Shown in pieces: positions 2,737 through 20,963 of a stretch of DNA of 20,963 bases. The stretch comes from an uncultured Lachnospiraceae bacterium. Its GTDB lineage: Bacteria; Bacillota; Clostridia; Lachnospirales; Lachnospiraceae. The translations under genes were made by a program, and so were the position numbers. The notes under the pieces were generated by a model that was given only the letters and a program-made list of their open reading frames with translations, was not told the DNA's origin and did no database searches. The stretch is from positions 1 through 20,963 of the forward strand of contig CANQGL010000041.1 of assembly GCA_947623185.1 (NCBI GenBank), given 5' to 3'. How positions within the stretch are numbered: the first letter of the stretch is position 1; each line of letters opens with the position of its first letter.

Positions 2737-3609
2737 TCAGATATGCCTTCTCCACTCCTCCATGCGGTACCGCTTCGCGGCTTTTACGGCTTCCAGCCGC
2801 TTGAGCATCGCAGGAATGTCGTCGTTCAGCGTTCCGGCGAGGACCACATAGTTTGACGCGTGGTTGGTGCGGAATACCGTTCCCGGCGAATCGACGTGCC
2901 CCAGGAACAGTTCCATCTCCTCGACGATCTCGTCCGGCGTGATGAGTTCCATCTCGCCGCGGCGCACCTCCTCGTTCATCTGCGTCCCCTCGTAGAGCCG
3001 CAGCGTCAGAAACGAAGCGTACTCCGGGTTCATGCCGCTTATCAGCTCCGCAGACCGAAGGGCGTGTTCGCGGATCCCTTTCCGTCCGCCAAGTCCGGAT
3101 ATCAGCGTCACCGATGTTTTCAGCCCGCAGCGCTTCAGTTTCCGTCCGGCTTCGACGATCTCCGCCGCCGTCACTTCCTTGTTGATATGTTCCAGAACGC
3201 GGTCGTCGCCCGATTCCGCGCCCAGATAGATCAGTTCGAGTCCAGCCTGCGCCAGCGCACGCAGTTCATCCTCGGATTTTCTCAGAACGTCCTTTGCCGT
3301 CCCGTATGAGGATATCCGCTCGGCAAAGGGGAAGTTCTCGTGCGTATACGCGAGCAGCTCCAGAAGCGTCTCCGTTTTTACGACCAGCGCGTCCCCGTCC
3401 GCAAAGAACACGCGGCGGACCATCGGGCCGTACATCGCCCGCGCCTCGTCGAGGTCGCGCATGATCTCTTCCTTTGTCCGCACGCGGAACTTCTTTTCGC
3501 GGTACATATTGCAGAACGTGCACCGGTTGTGCGCGCATCCGATCGTGACCTGAATGATCAGGCTGTACGCCTCGCTCGGCGGGCGGTAAAGCGTCCCTTC
3601 ATATTCCAT
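2737..3609 (-). CDS. Radical SAM family protein (290 aa), function unknown
   Basis: YRPPSEAYSLIIQVTIGCAHNRCTFCNMY carries the cluster-binding Cys triad followed by an aromatic residue. A GGD-like FFADGDAL segment and the TIM-barrel-style pattern are typical of radical SAM enzymes. The ATG is preceded by GGGAGA. Confidence 0.85.
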   Translation of the reverse strand: MEYEGTLYRPPSEAYSLIIQVTIGCAHNRCTFCNMYREKKFRVRTKEEIMRDLDEARAMYGPMVRRVFFADGDALVVKTETLLELLAYTHENFPFAERISSYGTAKDVLRKSEDELRALAQAGLELIYLGAESGDDRVLEHINKEVTAAEIVEAGRKLKRCGLKTSVTLISGLGGRKGIREHALRSAELISGMNPEYASFLTLRLYEGTQMNEEVRRGEMELITPDEIVEEMELFLGHVDSPGTVFRTNHASNYVVLAGTLNDDIPAMLKRLEAVKAAKRYRMEEWRRHI

Positions 3610-9579: not shown

Positions 9580-11580
9580 TCAGCAGACCTCGGAGCCGGA
9601 CTTGATGTCCTTTTCCGGGCTCATTAACGCCAGATTCCCCTCGTCGTCCTCCGCGCAGAGCAACATTCCCTCGGACATCATGCCCGCCAGTTTCGCGGGC
9701 TTTAAGTTGACCGCGACCATGACCTTGCGGCCGACCATATCCTCGGGTTTGTACCATTTCTTGATGCCGCTTAGGATCTGTCTGGTCTCGCTGCCGATCT
9801 TCACCTGCGAGCAGAGCAGCTTCTTCGACTTCGGCACTTCCTCACACTTTACGATCTCGCCGATGCGGAATTCCAGCTTTGCGAAATCGTCGTACTCGAT
9901 CTCCGGCTTGTGTTCCGGAACGATCTCACCAGGCGCACTCTCGGCGGGCGCTTCGCCGTCGGCCGCACCGTCAGTATTTCCGGCCGCTTTCTCCTCCGCC
10001 GCGTGCATCGCCTCGACCTTTGCAAGCACTTCCTTGATGTCCATGCGCGCAAAGAGGATCTCCGGTTTTTCCGTTACCTTATTGCCGTCCGGATAGAGCC
10101 CGAAACGATCCATGTCGGAGAGGGCGCGCTTTTCGGTATTTAACTGCGCCAGGATCTTTTCGGAGGTCTCCGGCATGAACGAGTACAGCAGGGACGCGCC
10201 GATCGTGATCGCCTCGGTCAGGTTGTAGAGCACCGTCGCCAGACGGTCCTTCTTCGCCTCATCCTTGGCCAGCGTCCACGGCATCGTCTCGTCGATATAT
10301 TTGTTGCTGCGGCGGAAGATCCCGAAGATCTCGGTGATCGCGTCCGCGACGCGCAGCTTGTCCATCTTTTCGTCGGCCTTCTTTACGGCCTCAAGAACCG
10401 TATTCTTCAGGTCCTCGTCGAACTCCCCGCTTACGCCCTTATTCTCCACAACGCCGCCGAAATACTTGTTCGTCATCGACACGGTGCGGTTGACAAGGTT
10501 TCCGAGAATGTTCGCCAGATCGGAGTTCATGCGCTCGACCATCAGCTCCCACGAGATCACGCCGTCGTTGTCGAACGGCATCTCATGCAGCACGAAATAG
10601 CGGACCGCGTCCACGCCGAAGAAATCCACCAGCGTGTCGGCGTAGAGCACGTTGCCCCTGGATTTGCTCATCTTGCCATCGCCCTGAAGGAGCCACGGGT
10701 GTCCGAATACCTGTTTCGGAAGCGGCACGCCGAGGGCCATCAGAAAGATCGGCCAGTAGATCGTATGGAAACGGATGATGTCCTTTCCGATCAGATGGAG
10801 GTCCGCGGGCCAGTATTTCTTATACCGCTCCCCGTGGTTGCCGTCGCAGTCGTAGCCGATGCCGGTAATGTAGTTGGTGAGCGCGTCGAGCCAGACGTAG
10901 GTGACGTGCTTCGGGTCGAAGTCGACCGGGATTCCCCACTTGAACGACGTTCTCGAAACGCAGAGGTCCTGAAGGCCCGGAAGCAGGAAATTGTTCATCA
11001 TCTCGTTCTTGCGCGATACGGGTTGGATGAATTCCGGATGCGTGTTTATATGGTCGATCAAACGCTGCGCATATTTACTCATACGGAAGAAATACGCTTC
11101 TTCCTTCGCAGGCTGGAGCGGCCTTCCGCAGTCGGGACATTTTCCGTCAACCACCTGGGACGGAGTCCAGAACGACTCGCACGGCGTGCAGTAAAGGCCC
11201 TCGTACTCGCCCTTGTAGATGTCTCCCTGCTCGTAGAGCTTGCGGAAGATCTTCTGCACCTGTTTCTCGTGGTCTTCGTCCGTGGTGCGGATAAACTTGT
11301 CGTAGGAGGTGTTCATCAGATCCCAGATCCGTTTGATCTCCCCGGCGACGTTGTCGACGAATTCCTTCGGCGTGATCCCGGCCTCCTGCGCCTTTAACTC
11401 GATCTTCTGGCCGTGCTCGTCCGTTCCGGTCTGGAAGAAGACGTCATAGCCCTGTTCTCTTTTATTGCGCGCGATCGCGTCCGCAAGAACGATCTCGTAG
11501 GTGTTGCCGATATGCGGCTTGCCCGAGGTGTATGCGATCGCGGTCGTTATATAATACGGCTGACTGCACTTTTTGCACAT
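9580..11580 (-). CDS. metG: Methionine--tRNA ligase with a C-terminal tRNA-binding (Trbp111/EMAP-like) domain
   Basis: It has a HIGH-type motif (GKPHIGNTYE), a KMSKS motif (DGKMSKSRGN), a Zn knuckle (CTPCESF...CPDCGRP) and a C-terminal FAKLEFRIGEIVKCEEVPKSKKLL...VNLKPAKLAGMMSEGML OB-fold. The RBS is AGGAGG. Confidence 0.96.
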   Translation of the reverse strand: MCKKCSQPYYITTAIAYTSGKPHIGNTYEIVLADAIARNKREQGYDVFFQTGTDEHGQKIELKAQEAGITPKEFVDNVAGEIKRIWDLMNTSYDKFIRTTDEDHEKQVQKIFRKLYEQGDIYKGEYEGLYCTPCESFWTPSQVVDGKCPDCGRPLQPAKEEAYFFRMSKYAQRLIDHINTHPEFIQPVSRKNEMMNNFLLPGLQDLCVSRTSFKWGIPVDFDPKHVTYVWLDALTNYITGIGYDCDGNHGERYKKYWPADLHLIGKDIIRFHTIYWPIFLMALGVPLPKQVFGHPWLLQGDGKMSKSRGNVLYADTLVDFFGVDAVRYFVLHEMPFDNDGVISWELMVERMNSDLANILGNLVNRTVSMTNKYFGGVVENKGVSGEFDEDLKNTVLEAVKKADEKMDKLRVADAITEIFGIFRRSNKYIDETMPWTLAKDEAKKDRLATVLYNLTEAITIGASLLYSFMPETSEKILAQLNTEKRALSDMDRFGLYPDGNKVTEKPEILFARMDIKEVLAKVEAMHAAEEKAAGNTDGAADGEAPAESAPGEIVPEHKPEIEYDDFAKLEFRIGEIVKCEEVPKSKKLLCSQVKIGSETRQILSGIKKWYKPEDMVGRKVMVAVNLKPAKLAGMMSEGMLLCAEDDEGNLALMSPEKDIKSGSEVC

Positions 11581-11612
11581 TTTCGTGTCCTCCTGAATAT
11601 TCTGCTTTCTCT

Positions 11613-11641
11613 AGCCTATCCTTTTCATACCATTTTGTCAA
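11613..11641 (-). promoter_or_regulatory. Candidate sigma-70 promoter for metG
   Basis: Read on the minus strand: TTGACA (11641-11636), a 17-nt spacer, then TAGGCT (11618-11613). It lies in the 74-nt gap between the rpoN stop and the metG start. Confidence 0.4.
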
Positions 11642-11654
11642 GCACGGTCCTGCC

Positions 11655-12995
11655 TTAACCCGGCTCCCTGCGGCGGAACGCGCCGCCGATCCCCATCTCG
11701 GTCCGGTATTTTGCGACCGTCCTGCGGGACACCGAGACCCCGTCTTCCCCCAACAGGCGGGTGATCTGCTCGTCGCTGTAGGGCCGGGTCTTGTCCTCCC
11801 CGTCCACGATGGCCTTGAGCCTGGTCTTGACCGTGTTCCGGCTCACGTCCCCGTTTTCTCCGCTGTTCTTTCCCGAACTGATCCCCGACGTGAACAGATC
11901 GCGCATCAGGATGCATCCGGATGGAAACAGCAGGTATTTGTCGCGCACGGCGCGGCTCACCGTCGATTTATGGATCTCCCGCTCCTCGGCGATCTCCTCG
12001 AGCGTCATCGGCTTTAACGGCTCGCGGCCGAGGAAAAAGCCCTCCTGGCGTTTCACGATGCTCACCGTGATCCCCTCGAGCGTCTGCCGTCTCTGCTCGA
12101 CGGCGCCTGTAATAAAGCGGGCGCGTTTCAGCTTTTCCTCAAAATACGTTTTCAGCGTCTCGTCGTGCGCCGTCTCCATCATATGGACGTAAAACTCGTT
12201 GATCCCGAGCGCTCCCGCCCATTTGTCGTTCAGGCTAACGATCCACTGTCCGTCCTGGCGCTGAACAAGAATATCCGGCACGATATACTGGGTCCGGTCG
12301 CCGCCGAATCCGTTTAACGGCCGCGGGTTCAGCTCCTTAATAATATGGATCAGTTTGCGCACGTCGATGGATGAGAGCTTCATGTCGCGGGAAATGCTGC
12401 TGATCCTTCCGTCCGCCACATCCTGCAGGTGGTTTCGGATCATCCGTTCCAGCAGCTCGCCGTTGTCGGCGTCCCGGATCTGGAGGATCAGGCATTCCTC
12501 GAGCCCCGACGCGAAGATCCCCTTCGGTTCGAGCTTTTTCAGCTCCGCGAGGACGCGCATGACCTGCGCCGGTTTTCTCCCGAGTGTTTCCGCGATCTCA
12601 TCCGGCGACATCGTGAGGTATCCGTTCTGATCCAGCGAGTGGATACAGAATTCCACGATCTCGCGCTCGTTCTCTCCCATCCTCTTTCCGGGGATCTGAT
12701 TCATGATCAGCTCCTCGACCGACTGCCCGTCGTTCTCGACCTGATAGATCTCGCCGTTTCCCTCGTCGATCGGCGAAACCTTTCCGTAAAAACGGTCATA
12801 CTCTCTGTAAACAACGGGGGCGCTTTCCTCATGCATCCCTGACGAATATTCGACAAGTGGATTCTCGATCTCCTCGTTCTGCAGAAATTCGTGCAGTTCC
12901 GAGGCCGACATACTGAGAATTTTCAGTGATTCCATCTGAACCTGCGACAAGATCTGTTTCGTCTGAACAGAAATTCCCGGTTTGATATCCAACAT
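11655..12995 (-). CDS. rpoN: RNA polymerase sigma-54 factor
   Basis: Region I is Gln/Leu-rich (QTKQILSQVQMESLKILSMSASELHEFLQNEEIENPLVE). A core-binding region follows, then a C-terminal HTH and RpoN box (SVSRRTVAKYRTEMGI). The 446-aa length is typical. Confidence 0.93.
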   Translation of the reverse strand: MLDIKPGISVQTKQILSQVQMESLKILSMSASELHEFLQNEEIENPLVEYSSGMHEESAPVVYREYDRFYGKVSPIDEGNGEIYQVENDGQSVEELIMNQIPGKRMGENEREIVEFCIHSLDQNGYLTMSPDEIAETLGRKPAQVMRVLAELKKLEPKGIFASGLEECLILQIRDADNGELLERMIRNHLQDVADGRISSISRDMKLSSIDVRKLIHIIKELNPRPLNGFGGDRTQYIVPDILVQRQDGQWIVSLNDKWAGALGINEFYVHMMETAHDETLKTYFEEKLKRARFITGAVEQRRQTLEGITVSIVKRQEGFFLGREPLKPMTLEEIAEEREIHKSTVSRAVRDKYLLFPSGCILMRDLFTSGISSGKNSGENGDVSRNTVKTRLKAIVDGEDKTRPYSDEQITRLLGEDGVSVSRRTVAKYRTEMGIGGAFRRREPG

Positions 12996-13108: not shown

Positions 13109-13888
13109 TTATTTCCCCGTGTATTCGCGGTGCGGGCGCTTTTCAAGGAACGCCGTCGTCGCTTCGAGATGGTCCGCCGTCCCGAAGCAGTCCGCGAACA
13201 GCCCCGTCTCGTTCTCAAGGCTCTCGGAAAGCCCGGCCTCCATCGCGGCGTTGATCGACTTCTTCATGCAGCTCACGCCGAACGGAGCCATATCGGTGAT
13301 GATGTCGGCCAGCTCCATCGCCTTCTCCATCAGCTTCTCCGGTTCCACCACATATTCCACGAGCCCGAGCCGCAACGCTTCCTCCGCGTCGACGCTTCTG
13401 CCGGTATACAGAAGCTCCTTCGCGCGCGACGCGCCGACCGTTCTCGGCAGGAGCACGGTGCAGCCCCATCCGGGGATCCCGCCCAGCTTGATCGTCGGAA
13501 CGCCGATCTTCGCGTCGGTCGCCGCCACCGTGATATCGCTCGCAAGAATGATCTCCATTCCGCCGCCGAGCGCATAGCCGCGGACGGCGCTGATGACCGG
13601 TACCCTGTGGTTCAGGATGGAAAGGATGCACTTCTTTCCGCGGCCGGAGAACGCGCGGGCCGTCTCGGGATTCAGTTTCACTTCCTCCTTGATGTCTCCG
13701 CCTGCGGTGAACGCTCTCTCGCCCGCCGCCGTGATGATCACGCAGCGCACGTCGTGATCGTTCTCCGCCGTCTCCAGCGCTTCCGTCAGCTCATCTAACA
13801 TCTGGGAATTGAACGCGTTGAGCGCTCTCGGGCGGTTGATCGTGATGACCGCGGTGCGGTTTTTCTTTTCGTAAAGCATGAATTCCAT
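13109..13888 (-). CDS. Enoyl-CoA hydratase/isomerase (crotonase) family protein
   Basis: AVITINRPRALNAF...VIITAAGERAFTAGGDIKE...AVRGYALGGGMEIILASD has the oxyanion-hole motifs of crotonases. The preferred start is the third Met (MEFMLYEKK), 6 nt after AGGAGA. The track start is 13894. Confidence 0.9.
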   Translation of the reverse strand: MEFMLYEKKNRTAVITINRPRALNAFNSQMLDELTEALETAENDHDVRCVIITAAGERAFTAGGDIKEEVKLNPETARAFSGRGKKCILSILNHRVPVISAVRGYALGGGMEIILASDITVAATDAKIGVPTIKLGGIPGWGCTVLLPRTVGASRAKELLYTGRSVDAEEALRLGLVEYVVEPEKLMEKAMELADIITDMAPFGVSCMKKSINAAMEAGLSESLENETGLFADCFGTADHLEATTAFLEKRPHREYTGK

Positions 13889-13938
13889 AATCATTCTCCT
13901 CTTTTCATAATTGTATTATCCACGGCGCGGATACGCCG

Positions 13939-15414
13939 TTACTGATCATCCGGCAGATCTTTGTAGATCGTCTTTCCCGCTTCGTTCTTCGGGATCTTTT
14001 CGATCGGGAGGACCCGGATCCCCCGCGGGTGGATCCCTGTCTTTTCGGACAGCCACGCCGCCGCCCGCTCGCAGAAGTCTTCGTCGGCCCCGGCCGCGTA
14101 GATCCTCATGGCGTCGTCCTTTCCGGTACAGGCCACGTCGATCTCCCCGAAACCGGCCTTGAGCATCTGCTCGATCTCATCCATGTTGACGCGCTTTCCG
14201 AACATCTTCAGGAACCGCTTTTTGCGGCCGGTAATATAATAGAAGCCTTCCGCGTCGCGTTTCGCCATGTCGCCGGTGAAAAGGATTCCTCCGCGTTCGT
14301 CGCCCTTTGAAAGATCCGCGCGGCAGGCCGCGTAGCCCATCGTGACGTTTTCTCCCTCGTAGACCAGCTCGCCGACCGTATCGGCCTCCAGGATCTCCGT
14401 CTTTTCGTCCTCCATCAGGCGGAACCGTCCGCCCGGGATCGCGATCCCCATGCTGCCGCATTTTCTGAGCGCGTCCTTTGCGGGCAGATAGCCCATGCGG
14501 GCGGTCGCCTCGGTCTGGCCGTACATGACGATAAACCGCCGTCCGGTCGCCTGCGCGTATTCCGCGAATTTCTTATGGAGCGCCGGGGACAGCTTTCCGC
14601 CCGCCTGCGTCATGGTGCGCAGCGAAGGCAGATCCATGCCGAAAAACGACAACCGGTTCAGCATCTCGTAGGTATACGGCACGCCCGCGATCGATGTGGC
14701 TCCTTCCTTCCGGAAGAAGTCCCAGAACTCCCGCTCGAACAGTGTATGTTTCGTCAGGAGGACCGTCGCACCGGCCAGTATGTGGCTGTTGATGACCGAC
14801 AGCCCATAGGTATAGTTCATCGGGAGCGTGGTGATCGGCCGCTCCGTCTCGTCAAGTTCAAGATATTCCGCGATCGCCGCCGCGTTTGACTGGATATTCC
14901 GCCTGCTCTGGCGGACCAGTTTCGGGCTGCCGGTGCTGCCGGAGGTCGTAAGCAGAAGCGCCAGCTCGCTGTTTAAGCCGTCTGCAGCGGCATCGTGTGC
15001 CGCCTCCGAGCGAAAGATCCGATAGCCGAACCGCTCCGTCTCTTCCGATGCGACGGGCGCGGCTTCCTCCGCCGGGCCATGCTCCCCCTCGCCGCCTCTC
15101 CCGCACATCCGCTCCTCCATATCCGCGGGGAACGCGAGGTATTCGGGCCGGTAGGTCCCGATCAGACCGGCCAGCAAATGTCTGTCCAGGTTCCGCTCCA
15201 GAAGTAACGGCACCACGTTTCTCCGCAAGCAGGTCAGATACAGGGCGACCGCTCCGATGCTGTTCTCACAGAGCAGGAACATTAACGTCCCGGGCCGCAA
15301 AAGCCCGGAGACCGATTCGTAAAACCGTTCAAATTCGCCGTAGGTGAGCCGTCCTCCGCCGTCTTCGACTAACATCGTCCGGCTGCTTTTCGACGGGTCC
15401 GTATCGTAAAACAC
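13939..15414 (-). CDS. ANL-superfamily adenylate-forming enzyme (acyl-CoA/acyl-carrier-protein ligase-like)
   Basis: Core motifs are LLLTTSGSTGSPK (A3), MYGQTE (A5), FTGD (A7), GRKKRFLKMFGKRV (A8) and PKNEAGK (A10). The GTG start at 15414 lies 7 nt after AAAGGAGG. An acidic/Gly-rich insertion (about residues 100-150) precedes A3. Confidence 0.88.
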   Translation of the reverse strand: MFYDTDPSKSSRTMLVEDGGGRLTYGEFERFYESVSGLLRPGTLMFLLCENSIGAVALYLTCLRRNVVPLLLERNLDRHLLAGLIGTYRPEYLAFPADMEERMCGRGGEGEHGPAEEAAPVASEETERFGYRIFRSEAAHDAAADGLNSELALLLTTSGSTGSPKLVRQSRRNIQSNAAAIAEYLELDETERPITTLPMNYTYGLSVINSHILAGATVLLTKHTLFEREFWDFFRKEGATSIAGVPYTYEMLNRLSFFGMDLPSLRTMTQAGGKLSPALHKKFAEYAQATGRRFIVMYGQTEATARMGYLPAKDALRKCGSMGIAIPGGRFRLMEDEKTEILEADTVGELVYEGENVTMGYAACRADLSKGDERGGILFTGDMAKRDAEGFYYITGRKKRFLKMFGKRVNMDEIEQMLKAGFGEIDVACTGKDDAMRIYAAGADEDFCERAAAWLSEKTGIHPRGIRVLPIEKIPKNEAGKTIYKDLPDDQ

Positions 15415-15429
15415 AGGATCCCCTCCTTT

Positions 15430-16638
15430 TCATGTCAAGGTCCGTGAAAGTTCTGCGATCATATCTTTTCCATCCCAGACCGGATCCATCCGGAGCGCCT
15501 GTCCCACAGGCACGACGCGGTGAACGCCTTTCAGCCTGTGGCGCAGGACCAGCTCCCGAAGGTCGGCTTCCCGAATGCCGAAGCAGGTGACGGACTGCGT
15601 CTTTTCCGACACCGCCTCCGTCCATTCGTCGCCGTTTTGCATGTGATATTCCAAAAAGCTTCCGAACTGCATCCGGTTTTCAGAAGCGATTTTTGGGACA
15701 TCGCTGCATTCCAGCACATACAGGCGGTTGCTCAGGCGCCTGATGCGCCGGAGGTTCGCACCGAACCCCATGCACTCCCAGAGTGCACCGTATTTTTGAC
15801 TGACTTTTATCTCTGAAAGCGCATAGCGCTTCGATGCCTCAAAAACGGCGTTCCAGAACCGATCCGCGGCCTCCTGTCCGGTCCGCTCATCCGGCTCCCG
15901 CCAGAATACCGCTTTCGGACAGGAGCAGGCATTCTGGTCCATCGCGTAGGTATCGTTGTAGAACCGGACCGCGAGCAAGCCGAGTTCTTCTTCGGAAAGC
16001 GCCAGGACCGCTTCGGCGTCAAGCACCGCCAGCGAATTGCGGTCCGGGAACACCAGCTCGACGGCGGACGGTTTCAGCGGTACGGCCCGTATCCTTGAAA
16101 CGGTCTCGTCGCCGCCCCAGATGATCCGCGCGTCGCATTCCGCGCTGAAACGTTCCGTCAGGTCCGTCCTCCCGCTGTCGTAGGAGATGATCGAGACCCG
16201 GTTTTGCATCCCGGCGAACCGCTCCTCGTTAAGCAGGCCGCCCAGCAGGCCGCAGAGAAGTTCCCCTTCCCGGGTCCGGACGCGCTCCGAGACCCTCACG
16301 CGGCAGGTATTTCCCGCCAGAAGACCGATCGCGCAGGTATAGACGAACATCAGCGGGACGTTCGCGGGCGCGATGTGGAAGCTCTGCCCAAGTCCGATAT
16401 TGCCCGGCCGGTCGTATTTTTCCTTCAGTTCCATCAGGTGCGCGCGCCGAAGCCAGAAGCCCAGCGCCCGGACTTCCTCGCCGGCCTCGTTCCGCGGCAG
16501 TCTGCGGATCGATTCCGCAAGCGCCGAGAGCAGGTCGAGCACGGGTTCGGAAAAGGTGATCTCCGGCCTGTCATCCGTTTCAAACGCTCCCGCAAGAAGC
16601 GTGATCCCTTCCGGGATCCGGTCGCATTCAGCCTTCAT
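15430..16638 (-). CDS. LuxC-like acyl-CoA (acyl-thioester) reductase family protein
   Basis: At 402 aa, FHIAPANVPLMFVYTCAIGLLAGN...RVS and the putative catalytic-Cys segment YAMDQNACSCPKAVFW resemble the LuxC/aldehyde-dehydrogenase-like reductase family. The start overlaps the preceding gene by 11 nt. The assignment is by eye and needs an HMM check. Confidence 0.72.
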   Translation of the reverse strand: MKAECDRIPEGITLLAGAFETDDRPEITFSEPVLDLLSALAESIRRLPRNEAGEEVRALGFWLRRAHLMELKEKYDRPGNIGLGQSFHIAPANVPLMFVYTCAIGLLAGNTCRVRVSERVRTREGELLCGLLGGLLNEERFAGMQNRVSIISYDSGRTDLTERFSAECDARIIWGGDETVSRIRAVPLKPSAVELVFPDRNSLAVLDAEAVLALSEEELGLLAVRFYNDTYAMDQNACSCPKAVFWREPDERTGQEAADRFWNAVFEASKRYALSEIKVSQKYGALWECMGFGANLRRIRRLSNRLYVLECSDVPKIASENRMQFGSFLEYHMQNGDEWTEAVSEKTQSVTCFGIREADLRELVLRHRLKGVHRVVPVGQALRMDPVWDGKDMIAELSRTLT

Positions 16639-17701
16639 AGGTATCGCTGCACCCCCTGATCTCCGCTTTCGGTATCCGGCCCGTTATCGCGAAATATTTT
16701 CCCTTCCGTCCGCAGGGGCAGTCGTCCTCCCCGAGGATCATCCCCTTGTCCTCCGTCAGGATCGAATGGCCGGGATACGACCACGCCATCGGTGTGATGA
16801 CCTGGATCACGCCCTCTTTCCCCGTCTCGCAGACGGAGAAGTCCTCCATATCCCGGATCAGGATCTCCGAATAGTCGCTGACGTGCAGATGTCCGCATTC
16901 ACATTCCATATAGATGCATCCGGTCTGCTCCGCCATGCCGTAATAGTTCCTCACATCACGGATCCCGCAGACCTCAAAAAGCCCGTCCCTGAAATCTTCG
17001 GCGGAGACCGCTTCGTTCTGCAGCTTCTTCCAGCCGCCGCCGTGGATCAGAAAGCCGTTCTCCAGAGGCAGCCGGAGGCCGGATTCCTTAAGGGGCCTGT
17101 AAAAATACTTCCATATCATATAAGTAAAGCCGAACACGAGGACCGGTCCGCCGGCCGCCTTCTCAAGGAACGACCGGACCGCCTCCGTATCCAGCTCCAT
17201 ATTCTCATTTAAGGCATACTGTCGTTTTGCCCCGAAGATCGAAAAGCCGAGTATACCGGCGCCCCGCGCGGAAAACAGGTTCCTGTCGTGCAGGACGTTC
17301 GGAGAATCGACGATCAGCATCGGGATCCGCTTTTCGCCGATGTAGCTGCTGACGATCCGCTGTAAAGTCCTCTGCTGCCATTCCGCCGTCTTCCGGTCCA
17401 GAAAGATCCTTGACGGCTGCTGCCCGGTCGTCCCGGAGGATGTCATGGTCTTGAACACTTCCTCCGCGGGCACGCTGCAGAGCTCCGCCTTCTTAAACAA
17501 AGAGACCGGCACCATCGGGACCGTTTCCGGGCTGCGCCGCATCCCGCGCCTGTCTCCCAGTAGCTCGCAGCAGCGGTCATACGGAGCGCAGCATTCCCTG
17601 TGCCGGTCAGTCAGATCGCTCAGAAGTTCGCTGTAAACCTCCCGTTTCTCCGCCGAGCCGAGTTCATATGGGCCGCGCTGTAAAAGTTCGTCATAAGTCA
17701 T
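16628..17701 (-). CDS. LuxE-like acyl-protein synthetase (adenylating, PaaK/LuxE family)
   Basis: At 357 aa, FKTMTSSGTTGQQPSRIFLD (the P-loop-like ANL motif as found in LuxE), HGGGWKKL, YYGMAEQ and the C-terminal GRIPKAEIRGCSD are characteristic of the LuxE family. There are 11-nt overlaps with both neighbours. Confidence 0.78.
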   Translation of the reverse strand: MTYDELLQRGPYELGSAEKREVYSELLSDLTDRHRECCAPYDRCCELLGDRRGMRRSPETVPMVPVSLFKKAELCSVPAEEVFKTMTSSGTTGQQPSRIFLDRKTAEWQQRTLQRIVSSYIGEKRIPMLIVDSPNVLHDRNLFSARGAGILGFSIFGAKRQYALNENMELDTEAVRSFLEKAAGGPVLVFGFTYMIWKYFYRPLKESGLRLPLENGFLIHGGGWKKLQNEAVSAEDFRDGLFEVCGIRDVRNYYGMAEQTGCIYMECECGHLHVSDYSEILIRDMEDFSVCETGKEGVIQVITPMAWSYPGHSILTEDKGMILGEDDCPCGRKGKYFAITGRIPKAEIRGCSDTYEG

Positions 17702-18377
17702 GGCGGATCCTCACTTCCTCATCCATCCGATACGGCTCTCCGTGTCCCGGCAGGATCCACATCCCGTCCGGGATCGTGCGAAGCCACGGTTTCGCGTACC
17801 GCTCGTACTCCTCCTCGCTCCCTCCGGGCAGCCGGGTCAAAACCCTGTCGCCGGGAAGCAGATAGTCGCCGACAAACAGCAGATCGCCGAAGCGGATCAC
17901 GCTGCTGCCGTGCGTATGTCCGGGCAGCGAGACAAATTCCAGCAGGCCGTCCGCAAACGGGACCGCCATGCTGTCTCCGAACTGCAGATCCGGCGGATCG
18001 CAGGTAAACGGTCTGTAATGGACAAAAGTCTTTTCACCGCTCTTATAATAAAGAAACGTTTCCATCAGACGCGACATGTTCTCCTTGGCGCTCTGCATCC
18101 CGCGGGCGCACGCGCTGCTTCCGATCACGACCGTGCGGTACCGCTCCCGCAGAGCGTTGAGCCCGCCGATATGGTCGCAGTGCTCGTGCGTCAGAAGGAC
18201 CACGTCCGGAGTCATGTTGCGTTTTTGCAACGCCTCTTCCAGCAGTTCAAAATTATTGGGATCAATCACCGCCAGACGGCCTTCCCGCACCAGCAAATAG
18301 CAGTTGCTGTCCGTCACCGGGTCCACGATCCTCGCCGGAAAAAGTCCGTTTTCCATGTCCTCAGATCTCGACGCCAT
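17691..18377 (-). CDS. Metallo-beta-lactamase-fold hydrolase (glyoxalase II-like; possible thioesterase)
   Basis: NCYLLVREGRLAVIDP...VLLTHEHCDHIGGL (HxHxDH) plus downstream His/Asp ligands (LPGHTHGS, VGDYL, LPGHG). The start is ambiguous. The ATG at 18377 overlaps the ACP gene by 17 nt. The alternative ATG at 18356 lies 4 nt after the ACP stop. Confidence 0.85.
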   Translation of the reverse strand: MASRSEDMENGLFPARIVDPVTDSNCYLLVREGRLAVIDPNNFELLEEALQKRNMTPDVVLLTHEHCDHIGGLNALRERYRTVVIGSSACARGMQSAKENMSRLMETFLYYKSGEKTFVHYRPFTCDPPDLQFGDSMAVPFADGLLEFVSLPGHTHGSSVIRFGDLLFVGDYLLPGDRVLTRLPGGSEEEYERYAKPWLRTIPDGMWILPGHGEPYRMDEEVRIRHDL

Positions 18378-18597
18378 AACGTCTTAAAACTTCTTTTCCC
18401 TTCTCGTAGGACGTAAAGTCCAGAACATCCTGCGTCTCGATGCGGATATCGAAGGTCTCCTCCAGCTCTCCCATCAGATCCATATGGCCGATGGAATCCC
18501 AGAGCGCGATCCCGCGGTATTTAAGCGCCGGCAGCTCTTCATCGGTCTTGCGGAACATTCCGCGGAAGATCTTGTTATATTTTTCCAGGTTCGTCAT
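18361..18597 (-). CDS. Acyl carrier protein (stand-alone, 78 aa)
   Basis: It is a four-helix-sized protein with the phosphopantetheine attachment motif WDSIGHMDLMGELEETF (the DS(I/L) serine). It sits between dehydratase and adenylating-enzyme genes. Confidence 0.8.
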   Translation of the reverse strand: MTNLEKYNKIFRGMFRKTDEELPALKYRGIALWDSIGHMDLMGELEETFDIRIETQDVLDFTSYEKGKEVLRRYGVEI

Positions 18598-18630: not shown

Positions 18631-19437
18631 TTATTCCCAGTATCCGGCCGCCTCGGGAAGCTCCGCGGTCTCCTGCGGATTCTCGACCGTAAACAGTTCC
18701 TTCGGCATCAGCTGCCGGCATTTGGCGGCCGATACGACCTCTCCGTTCTGATTGACGCAGATCCCGTAAAACGTCCCGACATACTGGTCCTTCCCCTCGC
18801 GGCAGGCCGAAAGCATGATCTTAGCCGTGACCATATCGCCGTAAAACACCGGTTTCAGGAAACGGATCTGTTCCTCGATCAGAACGGTCCCCTCTCCGGG
18901 CAGCTTCGTTCCCATCGCGGTCGAGATCAGGCTCGCCGCCAGCACCCCGTGGACCACGGGGCGTCCGTAAACTGACCGCTTCGCAAATTCCGCATCCGTA
19001 TGCAGGCGGCTCGTGTCTCCGGTCAGCGCGGCAAAGCGGTCCACGTCGTCCTTAAAGAACGTCTTCGTGTATTCCGCGGTATCGCCCACGCGGAGCGTCC
19101 GTTTCTCCGGTCCGTTTTCCGTCGCCGCACCGTCCTGTTGCAGATCTGAAACAGAGCTCTCCGCAGCTTCTTTTTCGCGCTCCTCACGCAGATAGGTATG
19201 CACCTGCACGAAGCTGCGCTCGGTCGGCAGCACGAAAATGCGCTTGGTCGCGATCAGACCCTCCGTCGACGCGCAGGCGCGCATACAGCCGCAAGCCACG
19301 ATCCAGACGTCGCAGGTATTCCCCTCCGCCGCCGTGCGGTAAGTATGTTCCGGAAACTTTTCCTTGAGCAAATTGACCTGCCGGCCGCGGTTATATACGG
19401 AATTGCACCCGCCGCAATATTTCACACCGATTATCAT
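18631..19437 (-). CDS. Fusion protein: N-terminal six-cysteine domain plus C-terminal MaoC-like (R)-specific enoyl-thioester hydratase (hot-dog fold)
   Basis: The N-terminal 60 aa carry Cys at residues 8, 11, 42, 49, 51 and 55 (YCGGCN...TCDVWIVACGCMRAC). An acidic linker follows. The MaoC core is LRVGDTAEY...FAALTGDTSRLHTDAEFAKRSVYGRPVVHGVLAASLIS...LPGEGTVLIEEQIRFLKPVFYGDMV. The RBS AGGAGA lies 5 nt before the ATG. Confidence 0.85.
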   Translation of the reverse strand: MIIGVKYCGGCNSVYNRGRQVNLLKEKFPEHTYRTAAEGNTCDVWIVACGCMRACASTEGLIATKRIFVLPTERSFVQVHTYLREEREKEAAESSVSDLQQDGAATENGPEKRTLRVGDTAEYTKTFFKDDVDRFAALTGDTSRLHTDAEFAKRSVYGRPVVHGVLAASLISTAMGTKLPGEGTVLIEEQIRFLKPVFYGDMVTAKIMLSACREGKDQYVGTFYGICVNQNGEVVSAAKCRQLMPKELFTVENPQETAELPEAAGYWE

Positions 19438-19446
19438 ACGGATCTC

Positions 19447-19740
19447 CTATACCTGATGGCTCAAAAGCTTTTTCGCAAAATCAAGGATCTCCGGGTCCAT
19501 TTCATTGACAAGCACCACGTCCTTGATTTCAGGGATCTCATCCATTAAGGGCTTTCCGATCAGCTCTTCCGTCGTTACCAGCGCGGAGGGACATCCCGCG
19601 CAGTGCCCGGTAAGCCGGATCTTGAGGGCCCCGTCCTCAAACGAGAGGATCTCGACATCCCCCTCGTGTTCCATCAGGGATGGACGCACCTTTTCTTCCA
19701 TGACCGTTTTGATCCTCTGCAGCAGTTCTTCGTTCATCAT
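19447..19740 (-). CDS. Nfu/NifU C-terminal-domain Fe-S cluster carrier protein
   Basis: LLQRIKTVMEEKVRPSLMEHEGDVEILSFEDGALKIRLTGHCAGCPSALVTTEELI has the CxxC Nfu signature. The track ORF begins at a TTG (19767). The ATG-ATG pair at 19740/19737, following AAAGGAG, is preferred. Confidence 0.85.
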   Translation of the reverse strand: MMNEELLQRIKTVMEEKVRPSLMEHEGDVEILSFEDGALKIRLTGHCAGCPSALVTTEELIGKPLMDEIPEIKDVVLVNEMDPEILDFAKKLLSHQV

Positions 19741-19789
19741 CCCGCTCCTTTCTGTCATTACGGACAATCATCCTCTACCATATTATAAA

Positions 19790-19804
19790 GCAATTTCCGT
19801 GCCA
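19790..19804 (-). promoter_or_regulatory. Sigma-54 (-24/-12) promoter driving the eight-gene minus-strand operon
   Basis: The minus strand reads TTTGGCACGGAAATTGCTTT, i.e. TGGCAC-N5-TTGC with the exact consensus spacing. It lies about 50 nt upstream of the Nfu start codon. Confidence 0.78.
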
Positions 19805-20132: not shown

Positions 20133-20147
20133 TGGCACGCAAATTGC
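20133..20147 (+). promoter_or_regulatory. Sigma-54 (-24/-12) promoter driving abfD
   Basis: The plus strand reads TTTGGCACGCAAATTGCTAT, i.e. TGGCAC-N5-TTGC. The -12 element ends 55 nt before the abfD ATG. The RBS AAAGGAAG lies at about 20186-20193. Confidence 0.8.
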
Positions 20148-20201
20148 TATTAATAAATGATAGCAGTAAAAATATCTTTAAAAGAAAGGAAGTACAAAAC
20201 T

Positions 20202-20963
20202 ATGGCATTAATGACAGGCGAACAGTATGTTGAAAGCATGAGGAAACTGCATCTTCAGGTTTACATGTTCGGAAAGAAGGTCGAGAATCCGGTCGACGAT
20301 CCGATCCTTCGTCCCTCCCTTAACTCTGTAAAGGCCACCTATGACCTTGCTCAGATGCCGGAGTATGAAGACCTGATGACCACGACCTCCTCCCTTACCG
20401 GGAAGAAGATCAACCGCTTTGCTCACATCCACCAGAGCACCGATGACCTTATCAAGAAGGTCAAGATGCAGCGTCTTTGCGGACAGAAGACCGCGGCCTG
20501 CTTCCAGCGCTGCGTAGGTATGGACGCATTCAACGCAGTTTACAGCACGACTTATGATACCGATGAGAAGTACGGCACTCACTATCATGAGAACTTCAAG
20601 AAGTTCCTTGAGTACGTTCAGGAAAACGACCTCACCGTTGACGGCGCTATGACGGACCCGAAGGGTGACCGTTCTCTTGCTCCGCACGCACAGGCTGATC
20701 CGGATCTGTATCTGCATGTTGTTGAGAGACGTCCCGACGGTATCGTTGTCCGCGGTGCGAAAGCTCACCAGACCGGTTTCGTAAACTCTCACGAAGTCAT
20801 CGTTATGCCGACCCAGTCCATGGGCGAAGATGACAAGGATTACGCTGTTTCCTTCGCGGTTCCGACCGATGCGGAAGGCATCTTCCTGATCGTTGGCCGT
20901 CAGTCCTGCGATACCAGAAAGCTGGAAGGCAGCGAGATCGATGTCGGTAACTCCCAGTACGGC
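20202..20963 (+). CDS. abfD: 4-Hydroxybutyryl-CoA dehydratase / vinylacetyl-CoA delta-isomerase (N-terminal 254 aa; runs off the window end)
   Basis: My hand translation gives MALMTGEQYVESMRKLHLQVYMFGKKVENPVDDPILRPSLNSV...INRFAHIHQSTDDLIKKVKMQRLCGQKTAACFQRCVGMDAFNAV...DGAMTDPKGDRSLAP...GIVVRGAKAHQTG...DKDYAVSFAVP...GRQSCDTRK. This is near-collinear with Clostridium aminobutyricum AbfD as I recall it, including the CxxxC [4Fe-4S] ligand pair. It is missing from the ORF track because it is truncated. Confidence 0.9.
   Translation, partial: MALMTGEQYVESMRKLHLQVYMFGKKVENPVDDPILRPSLNSVKATYDLAQMPEYEDLMTTTSSLTGKKINRFAHIHQSTDDLIKKVKMQRLCGQKTAACFQRCVGMDAFNAVYSTTYDTDEKYGTHYHENFKKFLEYVQENDLTVDGAMTDPKGDRSLAPHAQADPDLYLHVVERRPDGIVVRGAKAHQTGFVNSHEVIVMPTQSMGEDDKDYAVSFAVPTDAEGIFLIVGRQSCDTRKLEGSEIDVGNSQYG

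Follow-up and report, generated by a model that had tools for sequence, protein, structure and literature searches.

A four-cysteine module fused to a MaoC hydratase belongs to a small-protein family that accompanies 4-hydroxybutyryl-CoA dehydratase

4-Hydroxybutyryl-CoA dehydratase (AbfD) is an oxygen-sensitive [4Fe-4S]/FAD radical enzyme that yields crotonyl-CoA. In gut anaerobes it is the key enzyme for making butyrate by the 4-aminobutyrate/succinate route, and archaeal 4-hydroxybutyrate CO2-fixation cycles and engineered C4 pathways use it as well. It is oxygen labile and hard to express well. Placement of a carrier gene beside a specific iron-sulfur (Fe-S) client is a known arrangement, and to our knowledge no known Nfu system includes a partner of the AF_0334 type. 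Here we describe the 20,963-nt contig CANQGL010000041.1 of an uncultured Lachnospiraceae bacterium (the whole contig is called the window), in which an Nfu-type Fe-S carrier gene precedes a gene for a 268-aa protein that joins an N-terminal cysteine module to a MaoC hydratase (all residue numbers refer to this protein). The explanation we favor, with confidence a little better than even, is that the N-terminal part would be a four-cysteine Fe-S module of Pfam family PF27236 (AF_0334), a partner of Nfu and AbfD that has become tethered to a hydratase.

The closest described gene sets are found in Clostridium. The XanR sigma-54 regulon of this genus includes abfD-nifU-hyp-ach-golB operons, and co-regulation was proposed for abfD, nifU, a small 'hyp' gene, a CoA-transferase gene, and acp-caiC-luxEC (Nie, Dong and Yang 2019; PMC6615313). 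In C. difficile, abfD lies in the operon cat1-sucD-abfD-CD630_23400-cat2-4hbD, in which CD630_23400 is listed as hypothetical (PMC6311696). This gene directly after abfD probably encodes a PF27236 member. Literature searches on PF27236/AF_0334, on abfD together with nifU, and on operon locus tags returned no functional study (AF0334 matched only fungal accession numbers) and no description of a role for Nfu or AF_0334 in AbfD maturation. In the literature, PF27236 proteins are treated as 'hyp' or 'hypothetical protein.'

The genes and domains at the center of this analysis are as follows:

18631-19437, minus strand: module-MaoC fusion open reading frame, 268 aa, with cysteines at residues 8, 11, 42, 49, 51, and 55
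19183..19437, minus strand: AF_0334 (PF27236) module, residues 1-85, delimited by precomputed Pfam annotation of homologues, conservation, and AlphaFold2
19102..19182, minus strand: acidic linker of variable length (residues 86-112), which starts as a helical extension and then becomes disordered
18679..19101, minus strand: PhaJ-type MaoC hot-dog domain (PF01575), residues 113-253, with catalytic D141 and H146
19447..19767, minus strand: gene for a 106-aa Fe-S carrier of the Nfu type (NifU C-terminal domain), at the head of the operon
19438..19446, minus strand: 9-nt spacer between the Nfu stop codon (TAG, 19447-19449) and the fusion start codon (ATG at 19437)

An earlier sequence-only reading of this DNA had placed a CAGC-type Nfu gene at the head of the operon, 9 nt upstream of the fusion gene, and the reading frames and the junction agree. 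In the coding-strand sequence across the junction, TAGGAGATCCGTATG, a Shine-Dalgarno AGGAG overlaps the Nfu stop codon, which suggests coupled translation of the two genes. The Nfu product carries GHCAGCP, a CxxC-type motif, and matches Pfam NifU (PF01106) with 74.4 bits. Genome-wide searches identified it as the only PF01106 gene of its genome, and the module is likewise present in a single copy, in the same operon. The fusion protein begins MIIGVKYCGGCNSVYNRGRQ...TCDVWIVACGCMRAC, with the YCGGCN motif near its start. Public databases label such fusion proteins only as 'MaoC family dehydratase,' a name that hides the second domain.

A family could be named for the N-terminal module, which the sequence-only reading had been unable to assign. 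By precomputed annotation, residues 1-85 are a member of the uncharacterized small-protein family PF27236, named 'AF_0334' in the contig annotation: the family is assigned to the 98%-identical cluster P0001, to all fused homologues, and to the 111 stand-alone profile matches described below. The window module has the family motif C-G-G-C-N-x2-Y-x-R ... G-C-x3-C. A phmmer search with residues 1-90 retrieved 494 representative clusters, mostly stand-alone proteins of 75-100 aa, with the 220-300-aa MaoC fusions a minority. As a lone query in a word-index search, the 90-aa module found 9 near relatives; a profile built from stand-alone members reached further and added 111 proteins, all annotated with PF27236 only and nearly all labeled 'hypothetical protein.' Searches with residues 1-95 against NCBIfam and against a copy of Pfam-A that lacks PF27236 (E<=10) returned no families, the Pfam-A result extending to the ferredoxin-type families, including thioredoxin-like [2Fe-2S] ferredoxins. 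The module profile retrieved nothing relevant from PDB sequences. An earlier impression of resemblance to small CGGC-type domains did not survive comparison. The CGGC domain PF08821 was rejected, with no hidden Markov model match at E<=10 or in the family search of the window's own genome, and with hhalign comparisons to two true members giving a probability of 21.7% for one, over 25 columns around CGGC, and of 0.3% for the other.

Of special interest is how closely this family follows abfD. In a sample of 400 genomes of the window's phylum, in which a clear gap set true AbfD (at least 57% identity) apart from paralogues (at most 50%), the module was present in 26 genomes (including the window's own), all among the 47 with true AbfD, and in 0 of 354 without AbfD; these figures are counts rather than statistics, because related genomes are not independent. 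By tblastn, 26 of 29 foreign module loci had abfD no more than 1.5 kb away, and in the window abfD is divergently adjacent to the nfu-fusion operon. Stand-alone members occupy comparable contexts, for example NifU-AbfD-module-AbfT-FeADH in an Anaerovoracaceae metagenome-assembled genome (MAG), AbfD-NifU-module-AbfT-FeADH-ACAD-ETF in another locus, and AbfD-module-thiolase-crotonase-HBD in Desulfovibrio. The PF27236 family is a dedicated companion of AbfD and usually also of an Nfu-type carrier.

The second association, with Nfu, was examined over a wider range of hosts. When one genome per species was scanned for the pattern, at least 537 module-encoding loci emerged, and detailed neighborhoods were read for the best 80 loci from named genomes. 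Hosts include the Lachnospiraceae Otoolea muris, [Clostridium] symbiosum, Lacrimispora, Hungatella, Anaerostipes, and Faecalicatena, together with Megasphaera, Sedimentibacter, Fusobacterium, Anaerovorax, Clostridium, and a Spirochaetaceae MAG; all of the named hosts come from anaerobic groups. A NifU-domain gene was found within 3 kb in 74 of the best 80 named-genome loci, and overlap of the NifU and module genes is frequent, amounting to 4 nt in L007 and L046 and to 14-17 nt in L045 and L047. The pairing of nfu with the module gene is conserved, also where MaoC is absent, and the supposed functional tie between module and carrier is reinforced by this recurrence across loci with and without the hydratase.

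Conservation narrowed the number of cysteines that matter. Two sets were compared, one of 26 full-length fused homologues with 39-72% identity to the window protein and one of 76 stand-alone-set sequences. The sequence-only reading had described a six-cysteine module; all six cysteines are indeed present, but only C8, C11, C51, and C55 are invariant in the family. C8, C11, and C51 are invariant in both sets, and C55 is present in 26/26 fused and 75/76 stand-alone-set sequences. C49 is found in 25/26 and 47/76, respectively, and C42 in 20/26 and 4/76, with tyrosine usual at the latter position in the stand-alone set. The module is therefore a four-cysteine rather than a six-cysteine module, and C42 and C49 are extra cysteines enriched in the fused clade. 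Other residues conserved in both alignments are G9, G10, N12, Y15, R17, and G50, of which G9, G10, and R17 are invariant alongside C8, C11, and C51. The maintenance of this Cys/Gly pattern across homologues indicates selection rather than chance, and four invariant cysteines make a metal or Fe-S site plausible. The metal site that these cysteines probably form would most likely hold an Fe-S cluster, given named hosts from anaerobic groups, a gene coupled to that of an Fe-S carrier, and a presumed client, AbfD, that is itself a labile [4Fe-4S] enzyme.

Structure prediction gave a compact fold for the module. AlphaFold2, run on the 76-sequence alignment, returned a small alpha/beta domain (predicted local distance difference test [pLDDT] score of 87.6 and predicted template modeling [pTM] score of 0.77) with the order b-a-b-b-b-a (E2-7, H17-27, E32-35, E41-48, E62-70, and H76-89). 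In this model CGGC lies in the loop after strand 1 and (C)GCxxxC follows strand 3, the long central strand, so that the two cysteine loops would meet if strands 1 and 3 were adjacent and parallel, as in flavodoxin-like folds. The matches that Foldseek returned below significance, which are treated as a lead only, include flavodoxin-like folds and chains of hydrogenase complexes. Such matches, together with four invariant cysteines in a predicted flavodoxin-like alpha/beta fold, would suit a small ferredoxin-like electron carrier that keeps the FAD and [4Fe-4S] cluster of AbfD in a catalytically active redox state, or links AbfD to another redox partner, instead of delivering clusters. The module's more frequent adjacency to AbfD (26/29) than to Nfu (about 10/29) in the broad sample points the same way, whereas the tight Nfu pairing in the named genomes (74/80) favors cluster trafficking over electron transfer. 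Since the AbfD reaction is redox neutral overall, no ferredoxin family was matched in Pfam even at E<=10, and the structural matches are nonsignificant, we regard a ferredoxin-like role as unlikely.

The C-terminal part of the protein is a complete MaoC hot-dog domain behind an acidic linker, as had been described from the sequence. Residues 122-220 match Pfam MaoC_dehydratas with 63.8 bits against a cut-off of 27, and the nearest proteins of known structure are PhaJ from Aeromonas (1IQ6, E=5e-22) and HTD2 from human (3IR3, E=4e-21). The PhaJ catalytic motif ALSEDFNPLH aligns with ALTGDTSRLH in the window protein, pairing D31 and H36 of PhaJ with D141 and H146; among the 26 homologues, H146 never varies and D141 is kept in at least 90%. 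Judged by these residues, the domain is an intact PhaJ-type (R)-specific enoyl-thioester hydratase, whose substrate may be carried by CoA or by the adjacent acyl carrier protein. Hydratases of the PhaJ type require no metal or cofactor, a premise of the sequence-only reading that stands as established knowledge. In the full-length AlphaFold2 model both domains are confident (pLDDT, 90.9), with a pTM of 0.59 and a linker that is disordered at residues 100-110 (pLDDT below 50 at 100-106); the linkers of homologues measure about 10 to 90 aa. The two domains are thus modeled as independent and flexibly tethered, like beads on a string.

A survey of domain architecture, a step that the sequence-only reading had proposed, found the module mostly stand-alone, fused to MaoC in one clade, and joined to a crotonase in a single genome. 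In a tree of 101 N-terminal domains, all 26 fused forms fell in one clade with Shimodaira-Hasegawa-like approximate likelihood-ratio test (SH-aLRT) support of 95, nested inside the stand-alone diversity. The clade also holds two sequences without MaoC beside the fused P0037, one of them from a 530-bp contig, and these are taken as truncated relatives. This topology points to a single origin of the MaoC fusion, which is real and conserved across the clade. Its members come from Lachnospiraceae (including Otoolea, C. symbiosum, Lacrimispora, and Anaerostipes) and from Megasphaera. By script, 40 of the 80 named loci were scored as fused, and in 38 of these 40 ACP and LuxE follow; inspection of the reading frames extends the list to L101, where the frame is continuous, and to L074, in which a linker frameshift separates the two parts. 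Six Megasphaera (Negativicutes) loci, L072, L077, L083, L085, L089, and L091, have the same fused gene and operon architecture as Lachnospiraceae, and the double operon thus seems to have been transferred laterally in its entirety.

Two operon heads have the module and lack the hydratase: L057 (about 3001-3270) of uncultured Pelosinus sp. UMGS1260 and L064 (about 3001-3273) of Lachnotalea glycerini DSM 28816. In both, the order is NifU, stand-alone AF_0334, and then directly ACP and LuxE, with no MaoC domain, and the presence of the module there is therefore independent of the hydratase. This arrangement looks like either a pre-fusion state or a secondary loss.

These data bear on the idea, raised in the sequence-only reading, that the cysteine module serves the hydratase to which it is fused, either as an Nfu-loaded redox or oxygen switch or as an electron-transfer site controlling MaoC. 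Covalent fusion maintained in at least 42 species-level genomes, and the enrichment of C42 and C49 in the fused clade (20/26 and 25/26 versus 4/76 and 47/76), speak for such a function. We nonetheless consider it very improbable, because the module is ancestrally, and still mostly, stand-alone and tracks abfD rather than MaoC, relatives such as L057 and L064 keep the module and drop the MaoC domain, no confident interdomain packing is predicted (pTM, 0.59) across a disordered and variable linker, and PhaJ-type hydratases are cofactor free. The module is more likely to act as a helper of the neighboring AbfD than as a cofactor site of the hydratase.

A single genome (G285) offers another hydratase junction. 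At L028 613-1686 (minus strand), the AF_0334 frame runs on, with no stop codon, through a complete ECH_1 crotonase, 358 aa in all (P0357), which may be a real second hydratase fusion or an artifact of assembly or mutation. It does not recur among 61 genomes of that order and was therefore not relied on.

Promiscuity of this kind would be expected of a pure docking or adaptor domain, holding structural zinc or no metal, that recruits Nfu, the hydratase, or carrier-protein enzymes to AbfD. Flexible-linker fusion to a hydratase, the run-on into a crotonase in one genome, and the persistence of the module at operon heads without MaoC (L057 and L064) all accord with this, as does a CxxC...CxxxC pattern that would suit Zn(Cys)4 coordination. 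The predicted placement of the cysteines in loops after parallel strands, however, is not zinc-knuckle geometry, the gene is paired with an Fe-S carrier in named hosts that all come from anaerobic groups, and the crotonase case stands alone among the 61 genomes, so that an adaptor without an Fe-S cluster appears distinctly unlikely.

The favored explanation, an Fe-S module serving AbfD, can be stated as a sequence of steps. Nfu would assemble or carry a cluster and pass it to, or share it with, the four-cysteine module, which would dock on AbfD and install, repair, or redox-poise the cluster of that enzyme. Through its link to the module, the hydratase would be placed next to AbfD, where it could take the AbfD product, a crotonyl thioester; in this scheme the hydratase itself would need no metal. 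Hydratases of this product are regular neighbors of abfD: in Megasphaera cerevisiae (L086) an unfused MaoC gene lies upstream, the Desulfovibrio locus includes a crotonase, and another crotonase ends the window operon. In its most specific form, Nfu and AF_0334 would be a dedicated maturation, repair, or activating pair for AbfD, and the fused module would also tether an AbfD-hydratase metabolon, possibly one including the carrier protein, that channels crotonyl thioesters. This extended version is a tentative proposal that we think possible, with the balance of probability against it.

Several observations weigh against the favored explanation. About 45% of the abfD genomes in the phylum sample have no module, and recombinant AbfD has been produced in active form in E. 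coli without it; the module is thus not essential for AbfD activity. Nfu is adjacent in only about 10 of 29 loci of the broad phylum sample. The CxxC and CxxxC pattern could equally bind zinc, and a Foldseek search of PDB with the module model gave no significant match (best E=0.2). That the fusion would bring the hydratase to AbfD is reasoning of the Rosetta-stone type.

The wider locus is organized as two divergent units, whose remaining features in the window are the following:

18361..18597, minus strand: acyl carrier protein (ACP) gene directly downstream of the fusion gene, 78 aa, with a WDSIGH serine motif and a weak PP-binding match
19790..19804, minus strand: sigma-54 -24/-12 element upstream of the Nfu gene, TGGCACGGAAATTGC, an exact match to TGGCAY-N5-TTGC (TGGCAC-N5-TTGC)
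20133..20147, plus strand: divergent sigma-54 element before abfD, exact match TGGCACGCAAATTGC
20202..20963, plus strand: 5' part of abfD (4-hydroxybutyryl-CoA dehydratase), with the cluster-ligand motif CFQRC and 88% identity to the AbfD of L001

The abfD gene is split by the contig end. Positions 20157-20963 (plus strand) of the window and G000:C17:36425-37186 share sequence (…IVGRQSCDTRKLEGSEIDVGNSQYG), and this overlap places contigs C41 and C17 next to each other in the genome. On C17, abfD continues (YHRQSYGGC) and is followed by abfT, a 453-aa protein without a Pfam match, and a sigma-54 activator. The AbfD of this genome carries the motifs C-x3-C and H-x6-C, which we take to be the [4Fe-4S] ligands known from the clostridial enzyme; judged by these motifs, it is a genuine Fe-S enzyme. 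The 453-aa protein lies directly after abfT (contig C17 of G000; L048 6400-7761, minus strand), and the same slot is occupied by a conserved 456-aa protein in L001 and by a 480-aa protein without a Pfam match in L046.

Paired sigma-54 elements suggest that the nfu-led operon and the divergent abfD-abfT unit are most likely co-regulated. The sole Nfu carrier gene of the 2.75-Mb assembly (97.6% complete) lies behind one of these promoters, and expression of the genome's only Nfu carrier may therefore be conditional. Five fused loci with 34-54% identity to the window protein have this same layout and read AbfT<-AbfD and, divergently, NifU->module-MaoC->ACP->(MBL)->LuxE->LuxC->AMP-ligase, with a sigma-54 activator, and often rpoN, nearby.

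After ACP, the window operon continues with MBL, LuxE, LuxC, AMP-ligase, and a crotonase, and this ACP-MBL-LuxE-LuxC-AMP-ligase-crotonase set (13109-18597, minus strand) accompanies abfD/abfT in many genomes. In L045, whose cluster diverges most among those of the fused type, a single 785-aa protein (10160-12517) combines LuxE and LuxC, and the MBL gene is absent. Neither sucD nor cat1 was seen in the fused-type loci examined. A carrier-protein route making an aldehyde, such as succinate semialdehyde, for the 4-hydroxybutyrate pathway can be imagined as pure speculation.

The module family itself was already known, being in Pfam though uncharacterized. New here are the reduction of six cysteines to four conserved ones, the restriction of the module to abfD genomes in the sample, the confinement of the MaoC fusion to a single clade, and the move of the nfu-module pair to the head of a carrier-protein operon. 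A Pfam family previously without functional context gains one. If the favored explanation is true, the pair formed by Nfu and a four-cysteine helper would give a handle on installation or repair of the AbfD cluster, and the hydratase fusion would be a natural Rosetta-stone hint of physical contact between the helper and pathway enzymes.

Comparison with known systems shows where this locus is familiar and where it departs from them. In the XanR regulon of Clostridium (PMC6615313), the same gene set was proposed to be co-regulated, but there the small protein stands by itself, with its gene inside the abfD operon, and a fusion to MaoC is not listed. The upstream gene of the window resembles Nfu-type [4Fe-4S] carriers (NfuA) in encoding a bona fide NifU-domain protein with a CxxC motif. 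With PhaJ of Aeromonas caviae (1IQ6) and human HTD2 (3IR3), the whole hot-dog domain can be aligned and the catalytic Asp and His are shared, although both lack an N-terminal cysteine module. PF08821 shares a local motif of a beta strand followed by CGGC, but its CGGC is central, while that of the window module is N-terminal. The nearest relatives are the stand-alone PF27236 proteins of about 90 aa, among them the 'hyp' product of the abfD-nifU-hyp-ach-golB operons, which have the same CGGCNxxYxR...GCxxxC motif, the same predicted fold, and the same nfu and abfD neighborhood; in the window, by contrast, the module forms the first of two domains in a longer protein, and the gene has left the abfD operon for the head of a divergent carrier-protein operon.

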